Shown: positions 3,001-53,508 of the stretch, piece after piece
How the letters are laid out: every line of letters begins with the position of its first letter
Position numbering within the stretch: the first letter of the stretch is position 1
Source of the DNA: a virus
Length of the DNA: 64,000 nt
Direction: 5' to 3' (one strand)
IMG/VR virus record: IMGVR_UViG_3300045988_099661
Coordinates: 1,698-65,697 of that record
Made by a program: the position numbers and the translations under genes
The notes under the pieces: model-generated
Databases searched by the model: none
Seen by the model: the letters and a program-made list of their open reading frames with translations, nothing else
Told to the model about the DNA's origin: nothing

Positions 3001-3231
3001 ATCCCATTCTTCCTCTGTTAGATAGGCAGGTTTGCCCGCATAATTTAACAGGTTGCCGCCTGCTCTGATTACGCTGCCTGTCGCTCCTGCTACGCCGTGA
3101 TAAGCTGCGCTTAGGATTCCGTCGTCGTCGTTGTTTTTTTCCGGTTCTGGCGCGTAATCATCAAGCCACGAAAAATCATATACAGGCCGCTCGTTATTCA
3201 AATCCGGGAAGTTATATTTATTGTTAGCCAT
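1..3231 (-). CDS. Large virion-associated (internal/ejection-type) protein with a central lytic transglycosylase-like domain. The 3' end runs off the window (>=1077 aa).
   Basis: Not in the supplied ORF track because there is no stop codon in the window. I read every plus-strand triplet from 1 to 3231 in this frame and found no tta/cta/tca. The ATG at 3231-3229 is preceded by GGAGG. The motif AIGGQESGGNYNAVNGRTGASGKYQIMPENW (about nt 1790-2050) is an SLT/lysozyme-like signature. A Q/P-rich linker and an acidic C-terminal part follow. Confidence 0.8.
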   Translation of the reverse strand, partial: MANNKYNFPDLNNERPVYDFSWLDDYAPEPEKNNDDDGILSAAYHGVAGATGSVIRAGGNLLNYAGKPAYLTEEEWDKQMQADGGLRAFTNRTNKKIEEFGKEVEDAQARSYSDPFSAASIANAAASVIPYAIGLGLSARVGAPTVGEQAAANVSASAMATRLAPFLSKISGKYGETVAANAPKYMAPIIANLELGQKQALPEAVLESVTSGKLDYIDNAKRNGTYVPGVTEQEAEQVAKGVLTDNLMFITGTDTMQDALIQILGGKKAGKLKKAATAMGVGGGINSVQEMGQQIIPKMESGQDWSLTDPDILLSGLVGGLTGGVPAGVANMYDSYGPGSANTNVTPSDAGTTPAPGVDVTSVDNEREAFINAIGGQESGGNYNAVNGRTGASGKYQIMPENWSAWAQEAGLSADAPMTPENQEIVARHKLGEYYDKYGARGAAMAWYAGEGSLNYSEEALNRKQGKGDEPSINEYADQVLSRMGKTGSNAGDMGIPTARQAKSFLQQYLENDAAAGDEYNAVDTILGEGSDKDIIAKAIELGYGKQNEAEPPQTQQPVTPATTPEEQIQTATDNVNSAVDDVVNGGEIPTVQQPQVQPQQPPVQVQQPVQPQQTTAAPSFDDHIMNLRKTVDRIAKNKGEGAIKLTDEDAARYAGIAGGDNIQDLISAAESLKIKIPRGVKKEVARRADEERGKLRGDNWARAEAIAINNTVPKSIKDKHVDPATGIIRDGAFDKNRTAKAALNNSEYDGLGTRAMNGDEEARAQLRELKKIEQFALIDRARRAALGEGEDKAPAKAVKGKKAQTAQESRPQQPLDDSEVDALVNKKRETAPADEALGDKKHDGTMYGLPIYKSADGGVKYLLNEKAKKVRKMGKGIDEWHDFDSAEAAKESIAKDGAGEAENTAAADKGGDDNNGGKTNETDKNGTGSKGDDKGSENPVQNKQSEEPVKAKTGDDKGEGENGEAEQVEKPKKKEYKLSVWEKSGIDQGIGDIDILESLFGDHSGEEETSKPVKSKDDEDVERVITDNILVNESKELGERENAYNAIAEKFAESNPKAAEALGKYLTKHPEMRDLL

Positions 3232-3249
3232 CGTCCAGCCTCCGTTAGT

Positions 3250-4584
3250 TTATTTTATCCAGCCGCGGTCTTTTAAAGCTCTGTTTAAATAACCGCCATT
3301 TTCTCCAAGCACTCTTTGAGCAATCGCTGCAAGTTGTGCATCGCTATGTCTGCCGCCGTCAGCCTCTTTCATCTGATTCAACCAATCTTGCATCTGGTTG
3401 TAGTCGTTTACATTCGCAGGGACTTGACTAAGCTGCTGCCCACCGTTAAGCACGCTAGTCAAATAATTACGTGCCAAACGCAGCTGCCCTTGATTTGGAT
3501 AGGGAGTGTCAGGGTTTACTTTTACCCAAGCCTGCGCATCGGCAATAATTTCTTTCGCCGCCGCCATGCGCTGGTCGTTAGCTTTGTTTTGCTGAACACC
3601 AAATAAAGATTTCGCCGCTTGGTCGTAACTAATACCATTAGCTTTTGCGACCATACCAATCTTATAATTGTTCTGCCTTACAAAATCATTAAAGCTCAAA
3701 TCATGGTTAAACCTAGCTTGGTCTTTGCTCAACGCCGAAGCGTACGCCATGTCAGCAACTTTATACTGATGTTGCTTATCCATACGCTTATTAGTTTCAG
3801 CGACATTGTATTGGTCGTGCATCGTCGGCAGTCCGGCCATTGCAATTTTTGCTGCTTCCGGATTATACTTAGCCATTTGCGAACCAATCATCTGAGCACC
3901 AGTGTAATCTTTCGTCCCGATAGCATACTTATACTGCTCGAATAAATCGTTATACATGCCGTCATTATGCTCTTTGACCTTCGCATCAACCATTGGCGAA
4001 ATGTTATCCATAATCTGCCCAATCTGGTATTCCGTCCTGCCATTCTTTCGCAACTGCGCTTTTAGGAGGTTGTTAAGCATCTTCGGGTCGCTTACAGGCA
4101 CTTTGCTCAAGTCAAGATTCGCAAGATTGGTACTAATGGTGTTTGCTGTCTTCGATGCTATAATCTCATCGCCTGTTGGGTTTGGAGTTTTGCCGCCGTA
4201 TTTGTTTTTAACAAACTCCCATTTTTCCTTTTGAATGGCATCTTGCGGAGAAATTACGTTGTTAGCCGCATCTGCTGCTTGATTGCCGCCTGGAATACCA
4301 AACTGTGAATTTGCATTTGCGTAAGTTTGTTGCTCGCCAACAGTATTGCCCTGCAAGCCCTGCCCATAGACTCCCTGCAACGTATCATCGTTAGACGTAG
4401 GCGAAGTTGCGCCCACGCCATACAGGGCACTCAGCGCTTCCTGTTCGCCCTTTTCAATGCCACGACGGTTATAGTTCTCGCCCCAAATCGTGCCCAGAAC
4501 AGTACCGAGTGATTCACCAAGCTGTTCCTGCGGCGACGCGTAAGGGTTATAGCGCATCTTCATTCCATATCTGCCGTAACTCAT
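3250..4584 (-). CDS. Hypothetical late-operon (virion/internal) protein, 444 aa
   Basis: Long ORF tightly packed in the late operon. Its stop lies 19 nt upstream of the next start. No motif recognised. Confidence 0.7.
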   Translation of the reverse strand: MSYGRYGMKMRYNPYASPQEQLGESLGTVLGTIWGENYNRRGIEKGEQEALSALYGVGATSPTSNDDTLQGVYGQGLQGNTVGEQQTYANANSQFGIPGGNQAADAANNVISPQDAIQKEKWEFVKNKYGGKTPNPTGDEIIASKTANTISTNLANLDLSKVPVSDPKMLNNLLKAQLRKNGRTEYQIGQIMDNISPMVDAKVKEHNDGMYNDLFEQYKYAIGTKDYTGAQMIGSQMAKYNPEAAKIAMAGLPTMHDQYNVAETNKRMDKQHQYKVADMAYASALSKDQARFNHDLSFNDFVRQNNYKIGMVAKANGISYDQAAKSLFGVQQNKANDQRMAAAKEIIADAQAWVKVNPDTPYPNQGQLRLARNYLTSVLNGGQQLSQVPANVNDYNQMQDWLNQMKEADGGRHSDAQLAAIAQRVLGENGGYLNRALKDRGWIK

Positions 4585-5720
4585 GCTACTTCACCGCCCC
4601 ATTCATCAGTACCCGCCTTCGCTACAAAACCATTAGCATAATAAGTCGACGTCCCGTGTCTCGTCGTCTTGAAGTCGTAAACCTTTCGCTCGCCGTCAAA
4701 AGCGATTGCTTTGACCGTACCGACGTTTTTAAGATTATCTCCGACGCGCAACATACACACATCTCTAAAAGTGCCGTCAGCAAGCATTAGCGGCTGTGTG
4801 AGTGTGGTTCCTACGTTACGCAGGTTGCCGTCGTCGTCTTGACAAATAACCATGTAAATCTCGCTGTAATGCGGCTTCATGACTTCCGTGACTTCTTCGA
4901 CGTGCTTTCTATCACGTACATGGTCGTAGGCCATAACCTTGTCGCCAGCTTCGATGTCGCGAATAGCTTTCTGTTCGCCGTCAGCCATCTCGACAGGCGT
5001 TTCTTCCACGAAGCACCAAGCGTTAATCGCCGCTGACGCCGCGCCGTTGAACAGACCACCGAGGAAGCTGCCGCCGCCAGAGGTCGTGCTGGTTGTTGTG
5101 CCTTGACCGGACACCGCATTCAGAGCGCCAAGCGTACCGCCGCTATTTAAACCAAGGGACGCGTTCCAGAGGTTCAGAGCGGGCTGTTGAGCTGCTTCTT
5201 GTGCCGCAGCACTTGTAGAAATTTGGCTTCCGGCAAGCGATGCCTGTTGGCCATACAAGCCGTTCAGAACACCGATATTATTCTGGTACTGCTGCGCCAT
5301 AGTATCGGCAGCATTTTTAGAAATATCGTTCATAGCAGTATTAGTAACGCTGCTGTTCAAGATACCACGAGAGCCAAGGCTATTAAGCGTCTGCCCCATT
5401 GTGTTGTTAACGCCACTGGCGATGCTCGCTTCCATGTTCTTCTGATACTCCGCAGGAAGGATGCCTTGAGCAAGGTTAGCTACGCCCTGCTGCGCACTGC
5501 CGATTTGCTTATTAGCGTTGGACAACAACTGGTTATAATCAACTTGAATAGTGCCCAAGCTGTCTTTCAGCAAGCCTTGTGCTACGTTATTCAGCCACAA
5601 GGCGTTAGGTGCCACCGCTTCTGCATAATCGGCAGCCTGCTTCTGCAAGCGGATTTCCTGCTCTGTTGGTTTGTAAGACTGAACTGTTGTGCTGCCGCCT
5701 TTTTTACCCATTAAGCGCAC
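4581..5720 (-). CDS. Virion-module protein with a Gln/Asn/Gly-rich N-terminal part and a C-terminal Hint (intein-like autoprocessing) domain
   Basis: The last 144 aa begin CFVEETPVEMADGEQKAIRDIEAGDKVMAY, an intein block-A-like motif. They end YYANGFVAKAG, which is block-G-like but lacks the His-Asn. Confidence 0.7.
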   Translation of the reverse strand: MRLMGKKGGSTTVQSYKPTEQEIRLQKQAADYAEAVAPNALWLNNVAQGLLKDSLGTIQVDYNQLLSNANKQIGSAQQGVANLAQGILPAEYQKNMEASIASGVNNTMGQTLNSLGSRGILNSSVTNTAMNDISKNAADTMAQQYQNNIGVLNGLYGQQASLAGSQISTSAAAQEAAQQPALNLWNASLGLNSGGTLGALNAVSGQGTTTSTTSGGGSFLGGLFNGAASAAINAWCFVEETPVEMADGEQKAIRDIEAGDKVMAYDHVRDRKHVEEVTEVMKPHYSEIYMVICQDDDGNLRNVGTTLTQPLMLADGTFRDVCMLRVGDNLKNVGTVKAIAFDGERKVYDFKTTRHGTSTYYANGFVAKAGTDEWGGEVA

Positions 5721-6198
5721 CTTCTTCCTTTAGCTTTGCTTTCATTTCCTCAATCATCGGACTGGTGGCTTTAGCGTTCAAGTAATGCGTCACCCAGTAC
5801 GCAGGCTCACCTGTTTCTTTGTCAGTATGCTTATAGGTGATAATAATCAGCCTGCCGATGCTATCTTGACACCAGTAACGATACTGTCCGTTTACTTCTT
5901 CGCGTTCCAGTATTTCCCAGCCGAAGCCGCGAATATATGGCTCGATATGGCGAGTGCAGATTGTTGCGACGCAGTTGCAGCCAAAGGTTGCACCCACAAG
6001 CTCGGCGAAATCACGCCAGAACTTAGCATCGCCGCATACTTGATACACGATTACCATTTTGCCCTCTTCGTCCAGCTTCATAGTAGCAAAGCCACGCTCT
6101 GCTAAATAAAAAAGGCGGTAGCCCGGTAGGATTGCCGCCTTGTCATTTGTTTTCTTTTCGTAAATCTCTATCCATTCTTTAAGGCTCTTGCCCTTCAT
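5704..6198 (-). CDS. Hypothetical protein, 164 aa
   Basis: ORF in the late operon. It overlaps the downstream start by 17 nt. Confidence 0.65.
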   Translation of the reverse strand: MKGKSLKEWIEIYEKKTNDKAAILPGYRLFYLAERGFATMKLDEEGKMVIVYQVCGDAKFWRDFAELVGATFGCNCVATICTRHIEPYIRGFGWEILEREEVNGQYRYWCQDSIGRLIIITYKHTDKETGEPAYWVTHYLNAKATSPMIEEMKAKLKEEGALNG

Positions 6199-6228
6199 AT
6201 TGCATACCGCCTTTCGTTATTTTACGTA

Positions 6229-7614
6229 TTATTCGTCAACGCCGTACAGATTAAAATTCTTGATTCTGTGTGGAGATGAGCTGGTCACGACAATTTCAAA
6301 CGCTCGCAAAGAATTGTAAAAATGTTTGATTCTACGCTTAGATGCCAAACTATAATCGAAGCCACGGTTGGCAATCTGCACATGAATCTTGCCATCGTTG
6401 TCGCCCTCTCTGCCCTCAACAAACATATCGAGGTAGCGGGTGATAATTCTGTTCGGCGTGATAAACATCTTCGATACAATCTTTGACTTGATAAGAGCAT
6501 TGCCGTCATTGGTATATTCAGAGTTCATGCGACGCAGACCAGCATCCGTAGCAAGCATAATGCCGTTGCTCGTCTCCACAGCGTCGTTAATGTCGTCGTG
6601 GAATACATACTTATAAGCCGCACCGGTATCGTACTGATAAATATAAAAGGTCTTTTTATCTGCTTCGTTAGGACGAATCCATAGCTGTCTACGCGTCAGC
6701 ATATTCCATACCTTCGGCTTATGGCAATTCTCTTGCAGCAGACGGTTGATTTTATAAGCAACCTCCGTAGTATCGAAGTTGCCGTAGGTCGTCGTAGTTT
6801 GCAAGCTGCGCAGCCCTAAGTCCGTAGCGAATACAATCGTACCGCCCATCAGCGCAAACGCTTCTCTGTCGTCCTCTGCGTGCGTATCGCTCAAAACAGC
6901 ATCGCTGCTGAGGTCTGGAACTGTACCAGATACGCGATAGCCCCTGTCGTTGGTTTTGAACACGATTAGGTCGCCTGCGAGCGTCAGCACTGTTATAATA
7001 TCACCACCGTCACAAGCGCCGATTTGATACCATTGCGCTTGGCTAATCATATTAGTATCTTCCTTCCACGCTTCGCTTGATGTACAATCACCGGTCGAGC
7101 TATAACGGAAGTTATCGTCGCCGCGCTTAGATGTGCCAAGTCTCATGTCCTGCACCCAAAGATTGTCGCTCAAGAAGCTGCTCTCTACCGTTACGAGCGG
7201 ATTCTTGTAATCGTAATATTGCAGTTTGCCACCGCTAGCTACAATTATCTTATCGGAAAAACGACAGCACATAGGGCGTTCTCCGCCCGTCAGCTTGCCA
7301 AGAGATGTTGACTGCTCACCAACATACGCATAGTAGACATTTGCACTACCAGAGCCGTCCGCAGGAGGCTTGCCTGCGAGCAAAAAGCCGTCGGTCGATA
7401 AATCATACCAAATCTTGTCAATCGGCTCTCCTATGTCAATCAGAGGCTCTGAGTAGCCGTCTCTGGTACGCAAAACGCCCTGCTCAAACATATAATTTTC
7501 GAGCAGAGCGGCTTCGTTTTCCGCTATCATATTTTCCGGTACAGAAGCGTTCATGCCGCCTGTCAAATTGCTTAGGCTACACGATACGGCTTGTTGTTGT
7601 CTTTCTATGGGCAT
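6229..7614 (-). CDS. Hypothetical tail structural protein, 461 aa (possible nozzle/tubular-type)
   Basis: Assigned from size and position in the tail module. The sequence looks beta-rich. No specific motif recognised. Confidence 0.45.
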   Translation of the reverse strand: MPIERQQQAVSCSLSNLTGGMNASVPENMIAENEAALLENYMFEQGVLRTRDGYSEPLIDIGEPIDKIWYDLSTDGFLLAGKPPADGSGSANVYYAYVGEQSTSLGKLTGGERPMCCRFSDKIIVASGGKLQYYDYKNPLVTVESSFLSDNLWVQDMRLGTSKRGDDNFRYSSTGDCTSSEAWKEDTNMISQAQWYQIGACDGGDIITVLTLAGDLIVFKTNDRGYRVSGTVPDLSSDAVLSDTHAEDDREAFALMGGTIVFATDLGLRSLQTTTTYGNFDTTEVAYKINRLLQENCHKPKVWNMLTRRQLWIRPNEADKKTFYIYQYDTGAAYKYVFHDDINDAVETSNGIMLATDAGLRRMNSEYTNDGNALIKSKIVSKMFITPNRIITRYLDMFVEGREGDNDGKIHVQIANRGFDYSLASKRRIKHFYNSLRAFEIVVTSSSPHRIKNFNLYGVDE

Positions 7615-7811
7615 AGCGGTTCACTCCAGTCAAATTCTTCCCAGTGACACGGCCATCTTAAATCCTTGCGTATCGAACCAGTATATAAGCGATGATGCTT
7701 CCAAAACATCATACGTCTAAATTTCATGAATGTATGCCACCTTTTCATCAGCATATCGTCTGGACGGCGCTTCCGCTTCACCGAATACATTCTTGCCTTT
7801 TTGTATTTCAT
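7605..7811 (-). CDS. Small basic hypothetical protein, 68 aa
   Basis: ORF with a 10-nt overlap to the downstream gene. Confidence 0.45.
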   Translation of the reverse strand: MKYKKARMYSVKRKRRPDDMLMKRWHTFMKFRRMMFWKHHRLYTGSIRKDLRWPCHWEEFDWSEPLCP

Positions 7812-7857
7812 AGCGGTTCACCTCACTTTCGTGTGATTCCTAGCAATAGCTATCGCC

Positions 7858-8124
7858 TCACTCGCTTTTTAAGCAACGGTTAGAATTTTTTCTGTATACG
7901 TCCTCATACATCTCTTGCTTATCGCCGTTGTAGGTGTATTCGGCATAAATGCCATCACCGCTGACAGTAGTTGACAGCAATGCCTTATAGTTCTGCAAAG
8001 TCTTGCACGCCCATACAACAAAGACGTTTTCTAAGGTGATTTTTTGCTCACCAGATTCATTGTACCATTCTACTAATTTGTTTTTGCACACAGATTCAAA
8101 GTGCGCCATACCTGTAATAATCAT
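7858..8124 (-). CDS. Hypothetical protein, 88 aa
   Basis: ORF in the late operon. Confidence 0.55.
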   Translation of the reverse strand: MIITGMAHFESVCKNKLVEWYNESGEQKITLENVFVVWACKTLQNYKALLSTTVSGDGIYAEYTYNGDKQEMYEDVYRKNSNRCLKSE

Positions 8125-8173
8125 TTTCCATTCCTCCTTTTTACCACTCCAATTTCGGCAGTTCCGCCTTTTA

Positions 8174-8704
8174 TCATACTTCCATTGTCACAGTTTCTAC
8201 TTCTGCTGCCGCAGTTGCTGCCTCAACTTTTTCTTTCGCTTTACGATATGCAACATGCAGGAGATTGGAGCGTACTGCTACGGCAGCAATAATCATCTTT
8301 AAATCGTTGGCAGTAACCGCAGTATCCGCATTATCTGCCGTGGTCCACTCTATTGTAGCTCCTTCGCCTTGCAGTTCAAGCGCAATAATTGCCGCATTGA
8401 TTCTATCTCTTGCCTTCTCATCATAATCAAAAGAGTAGCCTTTGTACTCAATCGGTTCAACCTCTGCTTTATCACGTTGCATCTTTAAAGTTTCGATTCT
8501 GCGATTTTTAAAATACTCAATCGGTTCTTCCTCGTGTGTCACTTCGACCCCTAAGTCTTTAAGGGCATCTTCAGAGATAGACAGAGGGATAAAGATACCC
8601 TCTTTGCCTAATGCTTCTGAAAGTTCGTAAACATTAGAGTAAGTTTTGTCTTTGTATTTATATTTTGTCTGCATTTTGTTCCTCCTTTGCTTAATAATCT
8701 TCAA
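8174..8704 (-). CDS. Tail-fibre assembly/chaperone-like protein (DUF4376-like C-terminal pattern)
   Basis: The segment YKGYSFDYDEKARDRINAAIIAL...WTTADNADTAVTANDLKMIIAAVA resembles the DUF4376 pattern seen next to fibre genes. The gene sits two genes downstream of the fibre. Confidence 0.45.
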   Translation of the reverse strand: MKIIKQRRNKMQTKYKYKDKTYSNVYELSEALGKEGIFIPLSISEDALKDLGVEVTHEEEPIEYFKNRRIETLKMQRDKAEVEPIEYKGYSFDYDEKARDRINAAIIALELQGEGATIEWTTADNADTAVTANDLKMIIAAVAVRSNLLHVAYRKAKEKVEAATAAAEVETVTMEV

Positions 8705-9095
8705 CTGTAGGTTTCATGTCATTTATTGCTTTGCCCCATGAAAAAGTCACACCACTTGTATAATAGCAATTAAACAGCAATCTATAAGTTTTATTGGGTG
8801 TTACACCTACAATGGAATCAATATCTGCGGCATCGTCGACTTCACCCTCAGAGGTAGTATAAAACCAACCCTCACCCCAAACTTTATTGGTTGATGTATT
8901 CTTTATGTTAGCATAGTTGGATAAATCGGGGGCACCCTCACCCCCATCAATAGACGATGTTACTTTGATTCTCTTAATCCCCGGTGGAACAGTAAAAGAA
9001 ATTGTTTTATTATTTGCGTCATTCCAAGTCCAATACTTGCTACCATCTTCAACCTTTACCTCACCATTTTTCATCATCATTCTGTTTAAGCCCAT
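8691..9095 (-). CDS. Hypothetical fibre-associated protein, 134 aa
   Basis: ORF immediately downstream of the collagen-like fibre. Confidence 0.55.
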   Translation of the reverse strand: MGLNRMMMKNGEVKVEDGSKYWTWNDANNKTISFTVPPGIKRIKVTSSIDGGEGAPDLSNYANIKNTSTNKVWGEGWFYTTSEGEVDDAADIDSIVGVTPNKTYRLLFNCYYTSGVTFSWGKAINDMKPTVEDY

Positions 9096-9105
9096 ATTAC
9101 CACCT

Positions 9106-11730
9106 CTACGATAACTTATTAGCTTGCACGATGCTGGTCAGATTATTGCTGGCATCTTTTACCATCATAATGTTTAAAAGCAAACCGGAGCTTGTAATAG
9201 CTACATCAGATGCAGACCCTATATACTTAACAGTTCCACAGTTAGTGATAGTCAATGCATAGTCTGCATCCGCTGTAAAGTACGCACTAAATACAGAGAT
9301 TTGTGACTTATCAACTTTCATTGCCAAAGCACCTAAATCAAGTGTGAAATTATTAGTTGCCTTATACATCATTGCAGATATAATCGGCGTATCATTCGTA
9401 CCTGTTACGATGTATATAGGATACTTTTCGTAATATACCGACAAAAAGTTTAACGTCTGCGCTGCTGTCCAAGTGTTAGCCACCGACGTTTTAGCGTAAT
9501 CAGCAAGCGATTGATGCTGTGTCAAATAACCTGCATCGTTTGGCAGGTCAGATACTTTAGTAGGCACACTAGCAGCAACGGAATCAATAGCAGCTTTTAC
9601 AGCTTTATTCTGCACAGGGTTAGTACTTGTAGATGACAGCTCGCTATCCACCGCGACTATGCTGCCTGCGCCTTGCTCGCCTTTATCACCCTTTGGGCCT
9701 TGTGGAATAACAAAGTCAAGCACAGCCGCAGATGTAGTACCGCTGTTCGTTACCTTTGCTGCCGTACCTGCTGCACCTGTGGTAACAACACCGACTTTAA
9801 TAGTAGCTGCTGCACCTGCTGCGCCTGCTGCACCGTCGTTACCTTTTGGGCCTTGCAGACCTTGCAAGCCACGCTCCCCTTGCAAGCCTTGCGGCCCTCT
9901 CTCGCCTTGTGGGCCTGTTGCTCCTGTTGCGCCTTGGATGCCCTGTAAGCCCTGTGGGCCTGTATCTCCCTTATCGCCACGCGGAATAACAAAATCAAAT
10001 ACGGCTGCTGATGCTGTTCCACTATTAGATATAGTAACAGAAGTGCCAGCTGCACCTGTTTTTACAGTGCCTACTTTTATAGTTGCCGGTGTTCCAGTAT
10101 CACCTTTTGCACCTTGCTCACCTGTTTCGCCTTTCGGGCCGGTGTCACCTTTCAGACCTTGTTCGCCTTTGACACCCTGTTCGCCTTTTTCGCCACGCAA
10201 TCCTTGAGGACCTTGAGGACCAACATCGCCTTTGTCACCTTTTGCACCTTTTAGTCTGGCAAGCTGTTCTTCGGTAAAATCGTTATAGGTGAAGGCATCA
10301 CCTTTTTCACCTGTTTCGCCTTTGTCGCCTTTAGCTCCTTGCAAGCCTTGCGGCCCTCTATCGCCACGTTCACCTTTAGCACCTTGAATGTTACCGCAGT
10401 CAATCCATTCTGTGCCAGACCACGCATAGAGATTAACGCCGACCATGTAAGCGTCGCCGTCTTTGCCTGTAGGATGTGCAGCCATTAAAGCAGATAAACT
10501 ATCATATTTGCCTTTAATGGTAACGCCTGTACCTTGGTCTCCCTTTTCACCCTTTTCGCCCCTCAGACCTTGTGCGCCTTGCAAGCCTTGCGGCCCTCTA
10601 TCACCTGTTGCGCCTTTGTCACCTTTAGGGATGATAAAATCAAAAACGGCTGCTGATGCTGTGCCGCTGTTTGTAACGCTTGCGCTTGTACCTGCTGCGC
10701 CTGTCTCTACAGTGCCTATTCTTACAGTGGCAGGTGTGCCAGTATCGCCTTTAACACCTTGAATACCTTGCAACCCCTGTAGACCTCTCTCGCCACGCTC
10801 GCCTTGCAAACCTTGCAGACCTTTGTCGCCTTGTGGGCCTTTAAGACCTGCCAACTGCTCCTGCGTGAAATCCGCATAAGTGAAAGCGTCACCCTTGTCA
10901 CCTTTAGCTCCCTGTGGGCCTGTTGCTCCTCGTGGGCCTGTTTCACCACGCTCACCTTGCAAACCTCTGTCGCCCTGTGGGCCTTTTAAAGCAGCTAGCT
11001 GTGCCGCAGTGAAATCAGTGTATTTGAAAGCATCGCCTTTTTCGCCTTTAGCGCCTTGCAAGCCTTGCGGCCCTTGCTCGCCACGTTCACCTTTAGCACC
11101 TGTTGCACCAGTGTCGCCCTTAGCACCTTGCTCGCCCTTTTCGCCGCGTTCGCCTTTGACATTTACTGGGGTAGGATTTGCAAGACCTGCTTTATTCGTC
11201 CATGTCATTACGCCGTCTTGGCTCACGGACGGAATATAGACGTTTACAGACTCGCTATACTCTTTAGCCTTATCAGCATACCCCTTGGCGTTCTGTGCGC
11301 TCTCAGCGGCGTTGGCTTCGCTTGTGGCGGCCTTTTCGCGCAAGTCCTTTACCTCGCCTAGTACCTCGACTAAATAAGTCTCTGTGAGCCTTCCTTCTTC
11401 GCCCATACCACCGACAAACTCACTGCCACGCACTGTAAGCAGTTTATCGCTTGCCGTGCCTGTCACGTTCTCTGCGTTCTTCCTGCCTACGACAGAAATG
11501 GTGAACTCGCCCTCGGCAGAAGTACACTGGATAGGCACTAGGCACTTGTTATCCTCAATATAAATTTCGTAGGTGTTATTGTCGCGCTTGAACAAAGCCC
11601 ATTTATCCAGCTCTGCCCAATCGGAAGAAAAACTGAATATGCACTCTACGAAGTTCTTTGAGCCTTCGATTAAATAAGCGTCCGACGTTCGTGTCAGACG
11701 CTGTTGGTCAATTTCAAATTCTATTTGCAT
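9106..11730 (-). CDS. Collagen-like tail fibre, 874 aa
   Basis: Many G-X-Y runs ([31 protein letters not shown]...). Three repeated about 40-aa non-collagen modules ([37 protein letters not shown] and two variants). The motif DAFTYxDFTxEQLAxLKG occurs three times. The C-terminal part contains [18 protein letters not shown]. Confidence 0.85.
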
Positions 11731-22463: not shown

Positions 22464-23810
22464 TCACATCTTGCCATATTTACGCGTCAAACCAAGCTTC
22501 TTAGCACGCATAAAGGCATTTCGTCTCGTATTATTAACAGGAAAAGCAAAGGTCAGACACAATGCGTCCGCCAAGTCGGGTGAATAGCCTGTCTTATCCT
22601 TGATGCTCTCCTTCGATTCAAGCTTGATACGGTTTAAGCCGTCAAAACTGTACTCCGGCATCGAAAGCTCCTGTCTCAGCTCCGGCATGTACGGCAAATC
22701 GCCGCCCTGTTCGAGCCATTGTCGGCAGCTATCCCACATCTCTGCACGCTTATTGACGTAGCGAGTGTCTAGGATAGCCTTGCCGCCAAACGGAACCTCA
22801 ATGACCTGCTTATAGCCTAATTGCCGCAGGCGGTCAATAACACCTTCGCCACGGCCTGCATCAATGAACACAACGTCTGGCATCCAGTCGTCAATCTCTT
22901 GCGCTAACATACCGGCAAAAGTCATGTTGTCGACCTCTTTTCTTGTCTTTGGCTCCCAGACCTTTAGTCCCTGTCTGCGTATCATTACACTGCGGTCATC
23001 ACCGAAACGCGCAACGTCCACGCCCAGAATCTTCGGCAAGTCTTTATACTCAGCCTCAGACAGCTCCCTGCTCATTGCCTCGTTGATGGAATCGAGAGAA
23101 ATAAGCTTGTTGGAAGCATTTGCAGCAAAGTCGCAGTAAAGCTCTTGTCGAATCTCGGCAGGAGTCATCTCACGCTTCATCTCTTCCAGCTCTTCCGCCG
23201 GAATGATGCCAGTCTGGTCAACATCATACAAGCATGTGAACCAAGAATTATTCTTCTTCGCCTTCAAGTAAATGTCGTAGAACTGGTTCTGGCCTTTAGG
23301 AGTACCAATAAAAACAGCCCATCCACGACGGTCTGACAAGGCAGGTCTGATAACCTCACCCCACAGCTCCTTACGTATCTGGGCATATTCATCTATTACT
23401 ACACCGTCCCAGTACGTACCACGAAGGCCGTCTGGACGGTCAGCACCGATAATGTAAATTCTTGCGCCACGCACATTCGGGTGAAAGCTCGGCAGCTCTA
23501 CATAAAGCTCACTCTCGTTAATCTTGCGTCCCGGTATCGCCGCAGTATATCGCTTGAGATAATCCCACGCAATCATCTTGGCCTGCTTCAAGAACGGAGC
23601 AAGATAAGCATAGTTAGGAGCTTCGTATTTCGTCATGGTGACAGCTTTCTTGACGATGTGATTAATGCTGCCAACCGACTTGCCAAAACGTCTGTGAGCA
23701 ACGATTACAGAGAACCTGTACTGTTCTAGAGCTGGATGCAGTATATCTCTCCAGAATGGTCTTGGCACATAGTCTATCTCGATTACATTACTCGCTATTG
23801 CCATTGTCAT
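22464..23810 (-). CDS. terL: Terminase large subunit
   Basis: Walker A-like AHRRFGKS and Walker B VVIDEYAQ. Nuclease motifs GVDVARFGDD, FIDAGRGEG and SPDLADAL. Confidence 0.95.
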   Translation of the reverse strand: MTMAIASNVIEIDYVPRPFWRDILHPALEQYRFSVIVAHRRFGKSVGSINHIVKKAVTMTKYEAPNYAYLAPFLKQAKMIAWDYLKRYTAAIPGRKINESELYVELPSFHPNVRGARIYIIGADRPDGLRGTYWDGVVIDEYAQIRKELWGEVIRPALSDRRGWAVFIGTPKGQNQFYDIYLKAKKNNSWFTCLYDVDQTGIIPAEELEEMKREMTPAEIRQELYCDFAANASNKLISLDSINEAMSRELSEAEYKDLPKILGVDVARFGDDRSVMIRRQGLKVWEPKTRKEVDNMTFAGMLAQEIDDWMPDVVFIDAGRGEGVIDRLRQLGYKQVIEVPFGGKAILDTRYVNKRAEMWDSCRQWLEQGGDLPYMPELRQELSMPEYSFDGLNRIKLESKESIKDKTGYSPDLADALCLTFAFPVNNTRRNAFMRAKKLGLTRKYGKM

Positions 23811-25971: not shown

Positions 25972-26199
25972 ATGGTAAAGAAAAGGTTGAAATTGAAGAG
26001 CGGGCTGGTGCTGGAAACACACTTGCACGGCTCCGCCGTGACACACGCTTACTTCATCGGTAGCAAACAACTTACACGCTTTGAACAAATAAGCGTGGTA
26101 AAGTTAGCAGAAAAGCACCGCTTACCAATCGCGCAATTCGCGCACTATGTCGGCTTTGACTTATCAAGTCGAAGCGTCTGCGCCAAATTGCTAATTTGA
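25972..26199 (+). CDS. Hypothetical protein, 75 aa
   Basis: ORF followed by a cassette-type stem-loop. Confidence 0.5.
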   Translation: MVKKRLKLKSGLVLETHLHGSAVTHAYFIGSKQLTRFEQISVVKLAEKHRLPIAQFAHYVGFDLSSRSVCAKLLI

Positions 26200-26288
26200 G
26201 CGCCTACGCAAGACGCCACCCGTTGACGTCTTGCCATGGTAGCTTAACAAAGTTGCCTAAAATTTTCAAAAAAAGGTGGTAAATGATT

Positions 26289-26426
26289 ATGGGAATTAAA
26301 AGCAAGCGTTACCGTGACGCAAAAATACAGGCGTTATGGGAACGCAACGTGAAGCAAGATGAAGATTGCATGGAAATCTTAACCATGCTTGCGCTTCTTG
26401 CCGTTCTCTTCATGGCGACGTTTTGA
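26289..26426 (+). CDS. Small hydrophobic-tailed peptide, 45 aa (not in the track)
   Basis: A conserved leader AAAGGTGGTAAATGATTATG precedes it. The C-terminus is LTMLALLAVLFMATF, and a stem-loop follows the stop. Confidence 0.4.
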   Translation: MGIKSKRYRDAKIQALWERNVKQDEDCMEILTMLALLAVLFMATF

Positions 26427-26558: not shown

Positions 26559-27998
26559 ATGGATATGGAAAATGCTAAAGATGTTGAACGCGAATGCGCT
26601 GAAAAGATGGTAAACACAGTATTTTGTGAAGTTTGCGGTAGTCTTATCCCCGTGAGCGAAGCTGTTGAAACATGCGACCATTACCACGTATGTCAAGATT
26701 GCGTTGAACGTGAATACGTTGAATGCAATTGCTGCGGTGAGCTGATTCCCCGTGACGACGCAAAAGAAGGCGCTGATGGTGAAATCTATTGCGAGAGCTG
26801 CTTCGACAACGACTTCTTCGTTTGCCCTCATTGTGGCAAAGTTGAATATATCGACGACGCCATCGCAGTATATGACGACGCTGACATGGATAGAGCTGAC
26901 TTTGCACTGTGGTGCAAGGAGTGCGCCACAGAAGACGCACACCGTTGCGACGACTGCGAGCGCTATTTCTGCTACAGACAAGACGTAAACGAGGATGACG
27001 CAGGGCATTGCCTCTGCGATACATGCTTCGATGAAGGGAATTACCGCCGCTGTGAAGACTGTAATGAAATCCTCTCAGAGGATGACCAATACTACAGCGA
27101 TATTGACGACTGCTGCTATTGCGAGCACTGCCTCCCAAAAGACGGCGGGGACGTCATCCACAACTACCACAGCGGTATTCGCCCGTTGAACTGGCATGGT
27201 GGTATCGGCAATATTCGCGACCGCCGTGACCATCTCTTCATGGGCTGGGAACTGGAAATTGACCGTGACGACTGGAGCAAGCAGACGGCATACGATGCAG
27301 AGTGCATTGTCAACGCCGCAGGTTACGACGTGGACGAATCCATCGTCTGCGAACAGGACGGTAGTTTGAACCACGGTTTCGAGCTTATCAGCTCTACCGC
27401 AACACTTGACTATCATCTGAACCATTACGGTATCGACGATTTGATGAAAGAGGCCGTTGAGCTGGGTTACACCAGCCACGACGCAGGAACTTGCGGCTTG
27501 CATGTACATGTTGACCGCACGTATTTCCTTGACGCTTTCGAGAACCCCGAAAACAATGCCTGCATTATCCTTGTGAACAATGCAGGCTGGCTTAAAAAAT
27601 TCAGCCGCCGTACCAATTACGAGTATTGCAAATTCCCGCAGGGCATTGAACCATTCCATCCGGAAGAGTTCAAACCTAATGTCCCGGACGTACTGGACAA
27701 AATCCCTGAGCGCGACGCTATGGAAGTGTTAGAGGATATGCGGCATACATACCGCAATCACTACCACGCGCTGAACTTCAGAGGTGGCTCTACTATCGAA
27801 TTCCGCTTCAATCGTGGTACGTTAAGCCCCGAAACTTTCAAGGCAACATTGCAACTTATCCAAATGTATGCTGATGCTATCAAGCACAGCCGTTTGGACA
27901 CAGCTTGCAAGATTAGCTTGAAATGGTTCTGTCGCGTAGCGAAACAACGCGGTTATACCGAGTTTCTCAGTTATCTGAAGCGTCACAACATCCAGTAA
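26559..27998 (+). CDS. Amidoligase-family (carboxylate-amine ligase-like) protein with an N-terminal array of five zinc-ribbon units, 479 aa
   Basis: C-terminal motif blocks: FMGWELEIDRDD, CEQDGSLNHGFELISS, GTCGLHVHVDR, GGSTIEFRFNRGTL. The N-terminal part has five CxxC-N(8-25)-CxxC units. The start is moved to the ATG at 26559, which sits behind the conserved leader AAAAGGTGGAATTGTACTATG. Confidence 0.65.
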   Translation: MDMENAKDVERECAEKMVNTVFCEVCGSLIPVSEAVETCDHYHVCQDCVEREYVECNCCGELIPRDDAKEGADGEIYCESCFDNDFFVCPHCGKVEYIDDAIAVYDDADMDRADFALWCKECATEDAHRCDDCERYFCYRQDVNEDDAGHCLCDTCFDEGNYRRCEDCNEILSEDDQYYSDIDDCCYCEHCLPKDGGDVIHNYHSGIRPLNWHGGIGNIRDRRDHLFMGWELEIDRDDWSKQTAYDAECIVNAAGYDVDESIVCEQDGSLNHGFELISSTATLDYHLNHYGIDDLMKEAVELGYTSHDAGTCGLHVHVDRTYFLDAFENPENNACIILVNNAGWLKKFSRRTNYEYCKFPQGIEPFHPEEFKPNVPDVLDKIPERDAMEVLEDMRHTYRNHYHALNFRGGSTIEFRFNRGTLSPETFKATLQLIQMYADAIKHSRLDTACKISLKWFCRVAKQRGYTEFLSYLKRHNIQ

Positions 27999-28090
27999 TT
28001 TAAGCGCAAACGCAGGGCATCACTTCGGTGGTGTCTTGCAGGGGTAGCTTAAAACTCCCAAATATTTCAAAAAAGGTGGAATGTATATGT
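27999..28090 (+). repeat. 92-bp cassette junction element, copy A (perfect repeat of 28985-29076)
   Basis: The sequence is TTTAAGCGCAAACGCAGGGCATCACTTCGGTGGTGTCTTGCAGGGGTAGCTTAAAACTCCCAAATATTTCAAAAAAGGTGGAATGTATATGT. It comprises a TTCG-tetraloop hairpin, a GGTAGCTTAA element, the SD and a double ATG. Confidence 0.95.
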
Positions 28091-28989
28091 GTATTATTGC
28101 GTACGCTAAACAAGGAATCGAAATCGAGGAGCATGTTATTCGCACAATGTTCGAGGGCAACCCCGACGGTGCGGGCATCATGTGGAAGCCGTTTGGCAGC
28201 ACAAACGTCGAAATTCGTAAGGGTTTCATGGATGTGGAAAGCTTACTGAAAGCCTGGAGAAAAATTCCCGTTGAATGTGAGAAGGCAATACACTGCCGTA
28301 TCGCGACTTCTGGCAAAATCTCAAAAGGCTGCTGCCATCCATTCCCCGTCCGTCCTAAAACAGACATGATGAAGAAGGCCGTTGATAAGTGCTACATGGC
28401 ATTGATGCATAACGGTGTTATTCGTCAGTGCACGCCTAAAAATGGCCTGAAGGCTATTTGCAGCGACACTATGGTGTTTGCGGCAAAATACCTCTATCCG
28501 TTGCAAAAGCAGATTGACAAAGAGTGCGTACAAGACTTGTTAGAGACTTTCGCCGCGTCTCGTCTGCTGATTATGCGCGCAAACGCTCCGACAATTATGT
28601 TAGGCGATTGGGTAGAAGACAAAGGAGTCTACTACTCCAACACGTCCTACAAAGATTGGGGTTACGGCTATTACCGCTGGCCTAAAAGCTGTCGCACGAG
28701 TCCTTCTGTAAGCTGGATTGCACTTGATATAGGCGATGACGAACCCCAAAAAGCCGCTGCCAGCGTTAAAGAGGCATTAGAGTGCAACAATATCCTTTTC
28801 GATATGGTAGACGACGGCGTAAGTGGTGAAGTGAGCTTTGAAGCCTACGATTTTCCTTATAGCACAACGAAGGTAGCAGGCTATAACATCATCGACCGCA
28901 TCGACGACGAGCAAGACGGTTACGACGACTTCGGGTATGAAGGATACGATGAAGGCGGCTATCTGCCTGTACGCTACCAAAAAGTTTAA
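28087..28989 (+). CDS. Class-II glutamine amidotransferase-like / Ntn Cys-nucleophile hydrolase, about 300 aa
   Basis: From the second ATG the protein starts MCIIAY, a Met-Cys nucleophile arrangement. Further blocks are NPDGAGIMW, HCRIATSGKISKGCCHPF and LMHNGVI. The C-terminal part is acidic and Tyr-rich. Confidence 0.75.
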   Translation: MCIIAYAKQGIEIEEHVIRTMFEGNPDGAGIMWKPFGSTNVEIRKGFMDVESLLKAWRKIPVECEKAIHCRIATSGKISKGCCHPFPVRPKTDMMKKAVDKCYMALMHNGVIRQCTPKNGLKAICSDTMVFAAKYLYPLQKQIDKECVQDLLETFAASRLLIMRANAPTIMLGDWVEDKGVYYSNTSYKDWGYGYYRWPKSCRTSPSVSWIALDIGDDEPQKAAASVKEALECNNILFDMVDDGVSGEVSFEAYDFPYSTTKVAGYNIIDRIDDEQDGYDDFGYEGYDEGGYLPVRYQKV

Positions 28990-29076
28990 GCGCAAACGCA
29001 GGGCATCACTTCGGTGGTGTCTTGCAGGGGTAGCTTAAAACTCCCAAATATTTCAAAAAAGGTGGAATGTATATGT
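28985..29076 (+). repeat. 92-bp cassette junction element, copy B
   Basis: Identical to 27999-28090 by direct comparison of the printed sequence. Confidence 0.95.
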
Positions 29077-29612
29077 CAAAAGAATGGTTAAAAGAATTCA
29101 GTGTATTGGTGAAAGCGCCGGGGCGCTATCATTGCACCAGGTGCGTTGTTAAAAGGCAAAAAGCTCCGACGCTTGAAAAAGCACAAGAGCTTGTAGCGAA
29201 CTACGGTGCATATCACCGTAAAAAGCGCGGCCTTGTCAGTGAGGAAGCCTTTTCGGTAATCAAGAACCCTGTAAAGTTTCGTGTAACCTATACATTCAGT
29301 TGGCCAGATGTCAACGCCACCCGAGAGAAAAGGCATGCTCTCACTGCTGTTCTTGAAGCAGCGAAATCACTTGTCGTTGTTGACCAGTGCTACGCTGGCA
29401 CTGACGTTTGCGACACCGATATATGTATATATCGCATCAATATCACCGGCGACGCTTGCATGAGGAGTTTTATCGAAAATCAACTACGCTTTTCCCAAAA
29501 AGAGAACGCTATCATCGACTACTGTATACAAGTAGAGCCGTATCTGGGTGACGATATTTGTAACCATTACATGATATTCAAAACTTTCAACGACAAGTTC
29601 TTCGTTGGTTAA
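29067..29612 (+). CDS. Hypothetical protein, 181 aa
   Basis: ORF behind a conserved leader. No motif recognised. Confidence 0.6.
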   Translation: MYMSKEWLKEFSVLVKAPGRYHCTRCVVKRQKAPTLEKAQELVANYGAYHRKKRGLVSEEAFSVIKNPVKFRVTYTFSWPDVNATREKRHALTAVLEAAKSLVVVDQCYAGTDVCDTDICIYRINITGDACMRSFIENQLRFSQKENAIIDYCIQVEPYLGDDICNHYMIFKTFNDKFFVG

Positions 29613-29702
29613 GTGCAAACCCAGCGTCCTACGCAGAGCTTAGGGCGTTGGAGGGGTAGCTTAACAACTCCCGAAAATATTTTTAAAAGGTGGTAATGTA
29701 TT

Positions 29703-30029
29703 ATGGATTTTAAACTAGTTAATTTGTGTGACCACGACGTAGTGATTAGAGACTGCAACAACAAATTTCACACGCTGCCAGCCTGCGAAGGTGAGCCAGC
29801 GCGAGTAAAAACCGACTATGCTCCAGTGTTTTATCTTGGGACAGTCGGTGTGAACCGCAAGGTGGGCAGTATAACCACATCCTTACCGCCAACCACGGAA
29901 GGCGTAATGTACGTAGTGAGCCGCATGGTAGCAGAAGCCAATAGGCATCGCAGAGACCTGCTGTTTCCAGGCGCCCAGTTCTACTCAGATGAAGGCGTTC
30001 GTTTCTGTGCAGGTTTAGAGATTCTGTAA
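29703..30029 (+). CDS. Hypothetical protein, 108 aa
   Basis: ORF behind a conserved leader. The N-terminus is MDFKLVNLCDHDVVI. Confidence 0.6.
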   Translation: MDFKLVNLCDHDVVIRDCNNKFHTLPACEGEPARVKTDYAPVFYLGTVGVNRKVGSITTSLPPTTEGVMYVVSRMVAEANRHRRDLLFPGAQFYSDEGVRFCAGLEIL

Positions 30030-50520: not shown

Positions 50521-50610
50521 TTTTGTTCAATGTACTGTGCATTTTGTATTTTGTATTGTACAATATTCAAATTGTATTGTCAATAGCTTTTTTGTTCAAT
50601 ATGCTGTACA
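50521..50610. promoter_or_regulatory. Second divergent switch: face-to-face promoters and two operator-like repeat types
   Basis: Minus strand: TTGACA (reverse complement of 50578-50583), 17 nt, TACAAT (reverse complement of 50555-50560). Plus strand: TTGTCA (50577-50582), 17 nt, TATGCT (50600-50605). Direct repeats TTTTGTTCAAT(G/A)T(A/G)CTGT(G/A)CA lie at 50521 and 50590. TTGTATTGT(A)CAAT boxes include the palindrome ATTGTACAAT. Confidence 0.6.
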
Positions 50611-50632
50611 ATTTAAAAGGAGGTGTTTTATT

Positions 50633-51133
50633 ATGTTGTTAGTAAACCTTAATGTGCTTCTTGCTGAAAGAAATCTTCGGATTAGTAAAGTATCAAAAGA
50701 TACTGGCATATCTCGCACTACGTTAACCGCTTTGTGCAATAATCTCAGCCAAGGCATTCAGTTTGAAACTCTGAATACGCTGTGCTCCTATTTGAGCATA
50801 TCCCCAATACAGTTTTTTACGTATCTTCCGCTTGACTATACTCTTTACATCGAGCGCCAAAACGCAAATTGCAGTATTGCGAATTTCTCTATCACTGCCA
50901 ACAAGCGGACAACAGACTGCGCTGCTTTCATTGACATTGAAGCTGATGCCGCCACAAGTTCCCTGTATATCACTCTTTCGCCATCGAGCGAGCCTGATGA
51001 CAATTCGGCGTTTCTACAAAAGTTCATCGAACAGTTACCGCCAATAGTCAAAGACTCCATTGAGGACAAAATCTGCAATATTATAGGTGAAGATTATGAG
51101 AATTACTCACTTACCTTCATTTGGGACATCTAG
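50633..51133 (+). CDS. XRE/YozG-like HTH fused to an about 100-aa unknown C-terminal domain, 166 aa
   Basis: The ATG at 50633 has AAAGGAGGTG upstream. The HTH is NLRISKVSKDTGISRTTLTALCNNLSQGIQFETLNTLCSYLSISPIQFF. The gene is embedded antisense in the leftward early operon. Confidence 0.7.
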   Translation: MLLVNLNVLLAERNLRISKVSKDTGISRTTLTALCNNLSQGIQFETLNTLCSYLSISPIQFFTYLPLDYTLYIERQNANCSIANFSITANKRTTDCAAFIDIEADAATSSLYITLSPSSEPDDNSAFLQKFIEQLPPIVKDSIEDKICNIIGEDYENYSLTFIWDI

Positions 51134-52365: not shown

Positions 52366-53508
52366 ATGCCTAAATACGGAGAGGGTTCTGTTTATTTTGA
52401 AACCTCAAGGAACAAATGGCACGCTTCCGTCGTCGACCAGCAAGGGCGCAGGACGCACAAAAGGTTTAACACGAAAGAAGAAGCGAACGCTTGGCGCTTG
52501 AGCACGACGGCGAAATATATCAAAGGCGATTATGTTGCGAAGAGCAACATAACTCTCGGCACATGGGTTTTGCAGTACCTCGGCGTGTTCGCCAAGCCTA
52601 AAGTGAGAGAAAAGACATTCCTGGACTACGCCAATACCGCTGCGCATATCAACGAAGAATTGGCGGATGTAGAACTGCAAAAGCTAACGCCCCTAGCGGT
52701 TCAAGCCTATATTAACACCGCAGAAATGACAGAGGGCATGAAGGATAGAGTGGTAAAGCTGCTTTGCCGTGCGTCTAAAAAAGCTATTGCGACAGGGCTT
52801 ATAGAGAAAGACTTCATGGCAGGCGTGGAAGTGCTCAAGCCAGAACCTAAAGAGGTCGAGATATTCTCTCCCGAAGAGCTGAGTATAATCATGAAAACCA
52901 TTGACAGCGACGCAAGACTTCGTAGGCATCATCTGCTCGTTTCCGTTGCTATCGCTTCCGGCTGTCGCATGGGAGAGATATTAGCCCTAACACCGCAGGA
53001 TTTAGACGGAGATGCCATAAAAATCAACAAGAGTTTAGTAGAGGTCAAGGGCGTAGCAAAGCTTCAGCCGCCAAAGACGAGGGCAGGGTATAGGCGAATC
53101 CCTTTGCCGAAGAATATAATGGCGGAGCTTTATCAAGCAGCATATGCTCTCGAAAGCGGTGAAATCATTAAGAATGCCAACGGCAAGCCATGCCTGTCTA
53201 CAAACATTGACAAGTCGTGGAAGCGAATTTTAAATAAGGCTGGAATTCCATACAGGAAATTCCATTGCCTGCGCCATACTCATGCGTCAATGCTGCTTGC
53301 TGCCGGTGTGCCTATATTGGAAGTTTCCAAGCGTCTTGGGCACTCTCGCCCTAGCCACACATTGAATCTCTACGGGCACGCCATCCCCGGCTACGACAGC
53401 CAGATGCCTTCACTTGTAGAAAAAGTTTTCAACATAGGAAATTGCAACAAAGAAACCATTTCTGCCGTATCTTGTCCCGTTTTACCCCAGACTACCCAAA
53501 AAAGTTGA
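52366..53508 (+). CDS. int: Tyrosine recombinase/integrase
   Basis: The C-terminal catalytic region reads RMGEILAL...HCLRHTHASMLLAAGVPILEVSKRLGHSRPSHTLNLYGH (R..H-x-x-R..Y). Confidence 0.95.
   Translation: MPKYGEGSVYFETSRNKWHASVVDQQGRRTHKRFNTKEEANAWRLSTTAKYIKGDYVAKSNITLGTWVLQYLGVFAKPKVREKTFLDYANTAAHINEELADVELQKLTPLAVQAYINTAEMTEGMKDRVVKLLCRASKKAIATGLIEKDFMAGVEVLKPEPKEVEIFSPEELSIIMKTIDSDARLRRHHLLVSVAIASGCRMGEILALTPQDLDGDAIKINKSLVEVKGVAKLQPPKTRAGYRRIPLPKNIMAELYQAAYALESGEIIKNANGKPCLSTNIDKSWKRILNKAGIPYRKFHCLRHTHASMLLAAGVPILEVSKRLGHSRPSHTLNLYGHAIPGYDSQMPSLVEKVFNIGNCNKETISAVSCPVLPQTTQKS

Follow-up and report, generated by a model that had tools for sequence, protein, structure and literature searches.

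What reaction does a phage obtain from a ligase that carries an array of zinc fingers and is followed directly by an amidohydrolase? The question is raised by two adjacent genes on the (+) strand of a 64,000-nt stretch of viral DNA (positions 1,698 to 65,697 of IMG/VR record IMGVR_UViG_3300045988_099661), which is referred to here as the window and from whose first letter all coordinates are counted. Gene A (26559..27998, +) specifies an amidoligase of 479 aa with a zinc-finger array, and gene B (28087..28989, +) a Cys1 amidohydrolase of 300 aa, of the N-terminal nucleophile (Ntn) type and with the fold of class-II glutamine amidotransferases (GATases). Together they would constitute a module of obligately paired enzymes for the formation and cleavage of an amide bond of the isopeptide type, and the best explanation, at somewhat less than an even chance, is that this bond is a gamma-glutamyl-amine, which A makes and B cleaves or processes.

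The module is a long-known and widely annotated prediction, and not a discovery. In 2009 (Mol Biosyst), Iyer, Abhiman, Burroughs and Aravind reportedly predicted a system of an amidoligase and a GATase-like thiol peptidase in phages and plasmids, and the Pfam description of PF12224 names the same neighbourhood, in which the ligase is accompanied by a thiol peptidase of GATase-like type or, instead, by an AIG2 cyclotransferase. Annotations of the amidoligase/GATase pair exist for LUZ24-like, PaP3, tf and OM43 phages and for Phage-ZRK32, the pair has been reported for phiEco32 and Marvin, and all such phage annotations go back to Iyer et al. 2009 (cited in PMC10580990). A literature search for an experimental function of the pair returned annotations and the 2009 prediction only, in agreement with the original prediction for this DNA, which was made from the letters of the sequence and likewise named no experimentally established function. 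A paper on plasmid leading regions mentions neither the amidoligase nor the GATase family, and BFVD lists phage proteins with the architecture of gene A as 'Amidoligase enzyme' or 'LIM domain containing protein'. New here are the very large, Pfam-less clade to which the partner belongs, frequent fusions of that clade to gamma-glutamylamine cyclotransferase (GGACT), and a zinc unit that is carried on different components in different elements.

Gene A: ligase domain and zinc-finger array

The C-terminal part of A (residues ~205-479; 27171..27998, +) is a catalytic domain of the Amidoligase_2 or glutamine synthetase-like kind, recognised by Pfam, by Foldseek and by its invariant residues. The Pfam model Amidoligase_2 (PF12224) covers residues 258-435 with 21.9 bits against a cut-off of 22 (E=1.8e-4), homologues of 30-45% identity to A score 25-37 bits against it, and PHROG 2443 ('amidoligase enzyme') matches A at 2.5e-8. 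The four sequence blocks on which the original prediction had relied are all present, with FMGWELEID at residues 227-235, CEQDGSLNHGFELIS at 264-278, GTCGLHVHVD at 310-319 and GGSTIEFRFNRGTL at 409-422. Across 45 sequences the invariant residues are E231, E233, D267, S269, E275, H315, H317, R320, R350, R351, N406, E414 and R416, and A displays the conserved pattern of ExE (E231/E233), HxH (H315/H317) and ExR (E414/R416) with R350/R351. By eye, its GWELE, GLHVHV and TIEFR correspond to GIELE, GQHVHV and TVEVR of E. coli YbdK; an hhalign comparison of the catalytic domain with the same protein gave an alignment confined to the TIEFR block (E=0.013).

An AlphaFold2 model of A, built from a 45-sequence alignment (pLDDT 90.4), matched in Foldseek, with probability 1.0, glutamine synthetase (GS; 8fbp, 6e-6), YbdK/GCS2 (1r8g/1tt4, 1e-5) and GmaS (4e-5). 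Dop and PafA were weaker matches (2.8e-3 and 4.7e-3), and the probability across the ligase matches was 0.92-1.0. The template-modelling (TM) scores against the ligase structures are low (~0.25-0.35), superposition being limited to the catalytic core. On the strength of the family scores, the Foldseek matches and the invariant catalytic blocks, the modelled protein can be placed in the carboxylate-amine ligase superfamily, with its catalytic residues intact; this was the family first suggested for it. Searches of PDB sequences, whether by single sequence or by profile, gave no significant enzyme match: A matched LIM domains only, and B only 1te5/PurF motifs that stayed below the threshold. The fold assignments of both proteins therefore rest on predicted structures. 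NCBIfam and PADLOC gave no match for either protein.

Ahead of the ligase domain, residues 23-191 (26625..27131, +) hold five tandem zinc units of the form CxxC-x16-26-CxxC, with the CxxC pairs at residues 23/45, 56/78, 89/119, 130/153 and 165/188. The N-terminus contains 11 overlapping CxxC motifs; when its 195 residues were shuffled 2000 times, the mean was 3.6 and no shuffle had more than 9. The cysteines of the units are invariant or near-invariant in the 45 aligned homologues. The number of units varies among homologues from three to seven and is most often four. A family profile compared with PDB sequences finds LIM domains, those of CRP1, CRP2 and PINCH, at ~1e-4, and LMO2 is found among the Foldseek matches of the model (5e-3). 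Pfam LIM (PF00412) has no match in the window protein; some of the homologues do match it.

With the LIM fingers of eukaryotic CRP1, PINCH and LMO2/4, the units share CxxC-x16-23-CxxC knuckles and an aromatic residue before the second knuckle. In canonical LIM domains, however, a 2-residue linker joins the fingers in pairs and the ligands are C2HC plus C4/C2HD, whereas A has five units with all-Cys ligands, spaced evenly at 7-8 residues, in which the binding of zinc is predicted. Because of this even spacing, the all-Cys ligands and the odd number of units, they are LIM-like rather than canonical LIM. They are also nearer to LIM fingers than to classical zinc ribbons. The tandem five-unit array that had been read from the first ~190 aa stands, while its description as zinc ribbons should be changed.

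Arrays of zinc fingers often bind nucleic acids, and it is conceivable, though very improbable, that the module modifies DNA or RNA: the fingers would bind the nucleic acid, A would add an amino acid or amide to a carboxylated or aminated base as a defence against restriction, and B would trim the product or supply nitrogen. Such a role would be in keeping with the position of the module beside restriction-modification cargo in some Clostridia loci, but the fingers are most similar to LIM domains, a kind of module that binds proteins, and no base-hypermodification enzymes (kinase, glycosylase-like transferases, DpdA) were found among the scanned open reading frames (ORFs) of the island surrounding the pair or as conserved genes in the flanks of related loci. 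In the gamma-glutamyl-amine reading, the five LIM-like fingers would most likely hold a macromolecular target or partner.

A Shine-Dalgarno (SD) sequence, AAAGGTGG, lies ~10 nt 5' of the ATG at 26559, and the homologues of A have a start equivalent to this codon, which together make a longer reading from the GTG at 26469 unlikely.

Gene B and its pairing with gene A

The start of B was placed by the original prediction at the second ATG of its reading frame, giving a protein that begins Met-Cys, and this can be upheld: 28087 is the true start, since all 40 aligned homologues begin MC and the spacing of the SD sequence fits. AAGGTGG lies 7 nt before ATG 28087 and only 1 nt before ATG 28081, which was rejected as the start for that reason and because of the MC start of the homologues. 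Among the relatives listed, 118 of 120 begin MC, and among the best 150 representatives the match runs from residue 1 with hardly an exception.

Residues 1-190 (28087..28656, +) form a GATase-II-like catalytic domain. All of the motifs named beforehand are found in it (MCIIAY at 1-6, NPDGAG at 25-30, HCRIATSG at 69-76, HPF at 84-86 and LMHNGVI at 106-112), and their key residues are invariant; over the 40 homologues, the invariant positions are C2, N25, G28-G30, H69, R71, A73, T74, G76 and H84-F86, followed by H108-G110, S126, D127, S184 and N185. The AlphaFold2 model of B (pLDDT 86) matches, with Foldseek probability 1.0, human GFAT-1 (3.4e-8) and the glutaminase domain of E. coli GlmS (1xff, 5.6e-6; TM 0.52 on the target), and further matches at the same probability are EgtC (2.8e-4) and PurF (8.6e-4). 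Alignment with E. coli GlmS by hhalign (E=2.3e-4) equates C2 with Cys1, R71 with Arg73, T74 with Thr76, N109-G110 with Asn98-Gly99, and D127 with Asp123. In GlmS and PurF, the residues of this set supply the nucleophile, form the oxyanion hole and bind the free alpha-carboxylate and alpha-amino groups of glutamine. The structural matches and the residue alignment both place B in the class-II GATase/Ntn fold that had been assigned to it, and, by analogy with GlmS, the conserved glutamine-site residues indicate that B should act on glutamine or a gamma-glutamyl amide, and not on ordinary peptides.

The profile of B aligns with those of canonical GATase_6/7 partners at 9e-5 (hhalign). Pfam has no match in the window protein, and only 5 of 40 relatives match GATase_4, weakly; the NCBIfam GlmS model gives B 15 bits against a cut-off of 381. 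B belongs to a divergent GATase clade that lacks a Pfam model of its own. At 50% identity, this clade comprises 12,117 representatives at E<=1e-3 and 2,180 at E<=1e-30, and its members show as domain-less proteins in precomputed annotation.

Beyond the catalytic part, B has a small alpha/beta domain (residues ~205-275; 28699..28911, +), predicted with high pLDDT as a strand, a helix and further strands, and then an acidic, Tyr/Gly-rich disordered tail. The domain is variable in sequence, yet it is kept in most relatives, and its only Foldseek match is a weak, ACT-like one (0.015). It was also tested as a degenerate GGACT and proved not to be GGACT-like.

Relatives of A were surveyed in 161 loci, of which 81 are viral and 80 from bacterial genomes, and which include phages, prophage-like contigs and serine-recombinase elements. 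The next gene after the ligase belongs to the B family in 61 of the 161, and in ~80 others the same place is taken by a canonical Cys1 GATase (MCGLFG..RGTDATGIAY) that Pfam GATase_6/7/4 models recognise above threshold. Single-linkage clustering merges both types of partner into one family, which is found directly 3' of the ligase and on the same strand in 147/161 loci, with a median gap of -3 nt. Nine loci end just downstream of the ligase gene, and most of the other apparent negatives do hold a GATase gene, broken into fragments or overlooked by the crude filter; the gene is truly absent only from loci L039/L042, L081 and L146. With a GATase-II gene downstream in 147 of the 161 loci, A and B are an obligate two-gene module, and the co-conservation in related phages on which the original prediction depended is seen. 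In five loci (L013, L017, L020, L040 and L047), the order is ligase, GATase and a second ligase paralogue, which suggests two successive or alternative ligations.

Among sequenced isolate phages, the zinc-finger version is nearly absent. A megablast search of the locus against 50,697 GenBank phages gave no match, a tblastn search found just six records for A and 24 for B, none of them a close relative, and only one unannotated faecal phage fragment covers >80% of A. The zinc-finger amidoligase is abundant in metagenomes, with 832 clusters of homologues for A. Its closest match from a bacterial genome lies on a contig of a metagenome-assembled genome of Phascolarctobacterium, and others are in gut Clostridia.

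Compared with the system predicted in 2009, the window shares the ligase family, the Cys1 class-II GATase-like partner immediately 3' of it, and the location on a mobile element, while the AIG2/GGACT association is met with in relatives, as fusions near Amidoligase_2 genes and as the stand-alone GGACT of phage DES1. It differs in the five LIM-like fingers of the ligase and in its partner, which is from a divergent clade undetected by Pfam and has an extra C-terminal domain. The window also lacks the ATP-grasp, COOH-NH2_lig and GGCT genes that join the pair in LUZ24-like phages, DES1 and ZRK32.

Gamma-glutamyl-amine chemistry and its rivals

GGACT enzymes free the amine from a gamma-glutamyl-amine, and members of the B clade are found fused to them or beside them. 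Phage C75C1 encodes a fusion of a B-type domain with a GGACT/AIG2 domain (PF06094, 2.7e-21), and the gene lies close 3' of an Amidoligase_2 gene; on a TARA phage contig, the distance from an Amidoligase_2 gene to the GATase-GGACT fusion gene 3' of it is ~1 kb. The fusion family has at least 252 clusters, and in the 120 fusions listed, all are matched from residue 1 by a hidden Markov model of the N-terminus of B (2e-19 to 1e-3), and 109 have the MC start. The gene order in Xanthomonas phage DES1 is GGACT, amidoligase-like, B-type GATase and RimK-like ATP-grasp, and Phage-ZRK32 encodes a GATase, an amidoligase, an ATP-grasp enzyme and a GGCT (PMC10945688). A GATase domain that is fused to a GGACT is expected to work on the same kind of bond, a gamma-glutamyl-amine, and EgtC, which removes a gamma-glutamyl group, is a close structural match of B.

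In 40 of the 120 listed fusions there is also a C-terminal CxxC...CxxC unit in the style of those on A; marine phage examples that end in CxxC...YYCxxC are P0288, P0306 and P0355 (C-termini) and L166 (3076-5897). Since the zinc unit occurs on fusions as well as on A, the finger moves between components and belongs to the system. For the writing and erasing of a gamma-glutamyl-type bond, the GATase-GGACT fusions offer indirect support.

The following scheme combines what was shown: the folds, catalytic residues that are intact, a pairing that is obligate, and fusions that link the partner to GGACT. By analogy with the GS/GCS2 superfamily, A would use ATP to turn a carboxylate into an acyl-phosphate and then join it to an amine, and the carboxylate could be the gamma-carboxyl of glutamate, coupled to an amine on a molecule of the host or of the element. 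In B, removal of Met1 would expose Cys1 as the Ntn nucleophile, and the conserved Arg and Asp would bind the free alpha-carboxylate and alpha-amino groups of glutamine or of a gamma-glutamyl moiety. B may then hydrolyse gamma-glutamyl amides, either glutamine itself or a gamma-glutamyl-amine, and take off or process the adduct made by A, in a manner comparable to PafA/Dop, EgtA/EgtC or GmaS with N-methylglutamate synthase. Phages and other mobile elements would carry such a module as establishment or counter-defence cargo.

The main rival, which is possible but rather unlikely, is the reaction of a two-subunit glutamine-dependent amidotransferase, in which B would free ammonia from glutamine and A would use ATP to activate a carboxylate, on a target held by the fingers, and turn it into an amide. 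All of the GlmS residues that bind free L-glutamine are kept in B, GS is the top structural match of A, and the archetypal reaction of the GS fold is the addition of ammonia to an acyl-phosphate. The two genes lie side by side, frequently with an overlap of a few bases, as would be expected for the subunits of one complex, and with two conserved genes only, a self-contained two-step reaction is parsimonious. What is hard to explain by ammonia supply alone is that members of the same clade are so frequently fused to GGACT and that stand-alone GGACT genes co-occur with the pair. Furthermore, ammonia-delivering class-II GATase domains are normally fused to their synthase, and no A-B fusion was found among 240 listed relatives. 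MurT/GatD, GlmS, PurF and AsnB share with the module a glutaminase and an ATP-dependent activator of a carboxylate, and the GlmS glutamine site is kept in B, but MurT has the Mur-ligase fold and GatD is a class I enzyme, and the GATase of GlmS and PurF is part of the same polypeptide as the synthase, whereas A and B are separate genes. The GGACT fusions and neighbours, the EgtC match and the moving zinc unit are the reasons why gamma-glutamyl-amine chemistry is favoured over glutamine-dependent amidation.

Several points weigh against the gamma-glutamyl-amine scheme. The GGACT links come from relatives only ~27% identical to B; GGACT, fused or stand-alone, is found nowhere in the window, and the window B has a C-terminal domain of another kind. 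The glutamine-site residues of B suit free glutamine equally well, as would be required of an amidotransferase pair. A coupled writer and eraser, co-transcribed and translationally coupled, looks futile unless B acts at some other step. No third gene was found to be kept with A and B across lineages in the 161 loci, and the scheme has to assume which carboxylate (glutamate for A) and which amine are joined, what the fingers do and what purpose the module serves.

Known systems with a comparable logic differ from the module in their parts. Pupylation by PafA/Dop also combines a ligase of GS-like fold with a dedicated amidase that removes a gamma-glutamyl-lysine isopeptide; its likeness to A is at the level of the fold only, and Dop is a paralogue of its ligase, whereas B has the Ntn/GATase-II fold. 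No conserved small ORF resembling Pup, a small tag protein with a C-terminal Gln/Glu, was found beside A and B across lineages, and the partner of A is not a paralogue of PafA. In EgtA/EgtC, GmaS/N-methylglutamate synthase and PuuA/PuuD, a ligase of the GS/GCS2 fold makes a gamma-glutamyl amide that is cleaved by a GATase-type amidohydrolase, but those pathways concern small molecules and have further enzymes in between, none includes a zinc-finger array, and mobile elements do not carry them. PuuD, moreover, is a class-I and not a class-II GATase.

The island, the phage and the mobile elements

The pair lies in a (+) strand island at ~25.5-31.9 kb, between the (-) strand terminase gene (22464-23810) and (-) strand replication genes (from 32109), and both the GC and the AT skew switch sign there. 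The island had been described as transcribed against all flanking phage operons; the flanks are indeed on the (-) strand, but the island is not the sole (+) block, as another at 50.5-53.5 kb carries genes for a CI-like helix-turn-helix repressor (50537-51133, +) and a tyrosine integrase (52366-53508, +). On the basis of these two genes, this gut-type phage is temperate.

Four copies (+) of an ~85-nt cassette, at 26195-26290, 28000-28086, 28986-29066 and 29612-29702, each precede a gene of the island. Every copy consists of a TTCG-loop hairpin, an exact GGTAGCTTAA box, an A-tract and the SD sequence AAGGTGG; the copy at 28000..28086 fills the interval between A and B, and it is almost identical to that 5' of ORF 29067. 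The cassette is probably a promoter or processing element, and can be likened to the promoter/stem-loop cassettes found on either side of mobile genes in T4-type phages. A scan of the island for sigma-70 promoters and terminators gave no excess over shuffled sequence. Between the first cassette copy and A there is a 47-aa ORF with a hydrophobic C-terminus (26283-26426, +), which may be co-transcribed with A.

Two genes 3' of B, an ORF of 108 aa (29703-30029, +) specifies a protein similar to the Crn4 ring nucleases. It matches Crn4b (PDB 9r7b, 5.6e-4) and the PADLOC model Unk_01 'sometimes fused to CARF' (1.4e-13), and it retains the catalytic His (LVNLCDHDV). The protein is probably an enzyme by which the phage counters type III CRISPR systems or their cyclic oligoadenylate (cOA) signals, a role already proposed for phage Crn4b homologues as anti-CRISPRs (PMC12830947). 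Its presence in the same island supports the original view of the island as accessory or counter-defence cargo.

Elsewhere, the window encodes a capsid and a portal protein of the SU10 type, RecT/YqaJ, and a replisome organiser of the Firmicutes type. An 874-aa protein (9106-11730, -) has seven collagen triple-helix stretches (7.8e-48) and is presumably a tail fibre; its 723-aa neighbour has an H-type lectin domain. A polyvalent protein of 2396 aa (56756-63946, -) combines a ResIII/SNF2-type helicase with an LPD3 domain, a mix that is typical of the large multi-domain proteins of phages and conjugative elements.

The other genes of the island are common to close phage relatives only, and DUF960 and the serine recombinase are restricted to Clostridia-type loci. 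DUF960 is directly 5' of the ligase gene in most of the 41 loci that have it, and a small resolvase is found ~1 kb 3' in 35 loci. In gut Clostridia, a core of DUF960, ligase, GATase, DUF1643, a 97-aa ORF and a large serine recombinase can be recognised (L064 at 2283-10697, L049, L054, L055, L059, L066 and others), which resembles the ccr complex of the staphylococcal cassette chromosome (SCC) elements. In L064, defence cargo of two kinds, MmeI-type restriction-modification and SIR2_2, stands ahead of this core.

The genetic surroundings also bear on the purpose of the module. Amidoligase and GATase genes have been taken in phage papers as putative auxiliary metabolic genes (PMC10580990, PMC10945688), and under this reading small gamma-glutamyl compounds would rewire host nitrogen, glutamate/glutamine or polyamine metabolism, with no macromolecular target. 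The structural relatives GmaS, YbdK and EgtC do act on small molecules. A role of this kind is nevertheless improbable, for a zinc array of three to seven units across hundreds of homologues would be unusual in a small-molecule enzyme, and the neighbours of the module are defence and anti-defence genes in early or accessory islands and recombinase elements, not metabolic genes. Within the gamma-glutamyl-amine reading, a more specific proposal is that the array docks a host protein, such as an immune or DNA-processing factor, that A glutamylates an amine on it to disable it, and that B tunes or recycles the mark; in this detailed form the idea is doubtful.

The amidoligase-GATase pair is among the most widespread functionally uncharacterised enzyme pairs of phages and other mobile elements. 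The version seen in the window is compact, with two genes and a zinc array as a possible handle for finding the target, and it shares its island with a likely anti-CRISPR ring nuclease, while the fusions of its partner to GGACT narrow the chemistry to a testable gamma-glutamyl-amine hypothesis. If the target is a small molecule, a 15-year-old annotation would be settled, and if it is a host macromolecule, mobile elements would have in the pair a new enzymatic route for the manipulation of cells. Should the gamma-glutamylation of host proteins prove true, the module would be a new class of enzymatic anti-defence or establishment function, common to gut phages and SCC-like recombinase elements.

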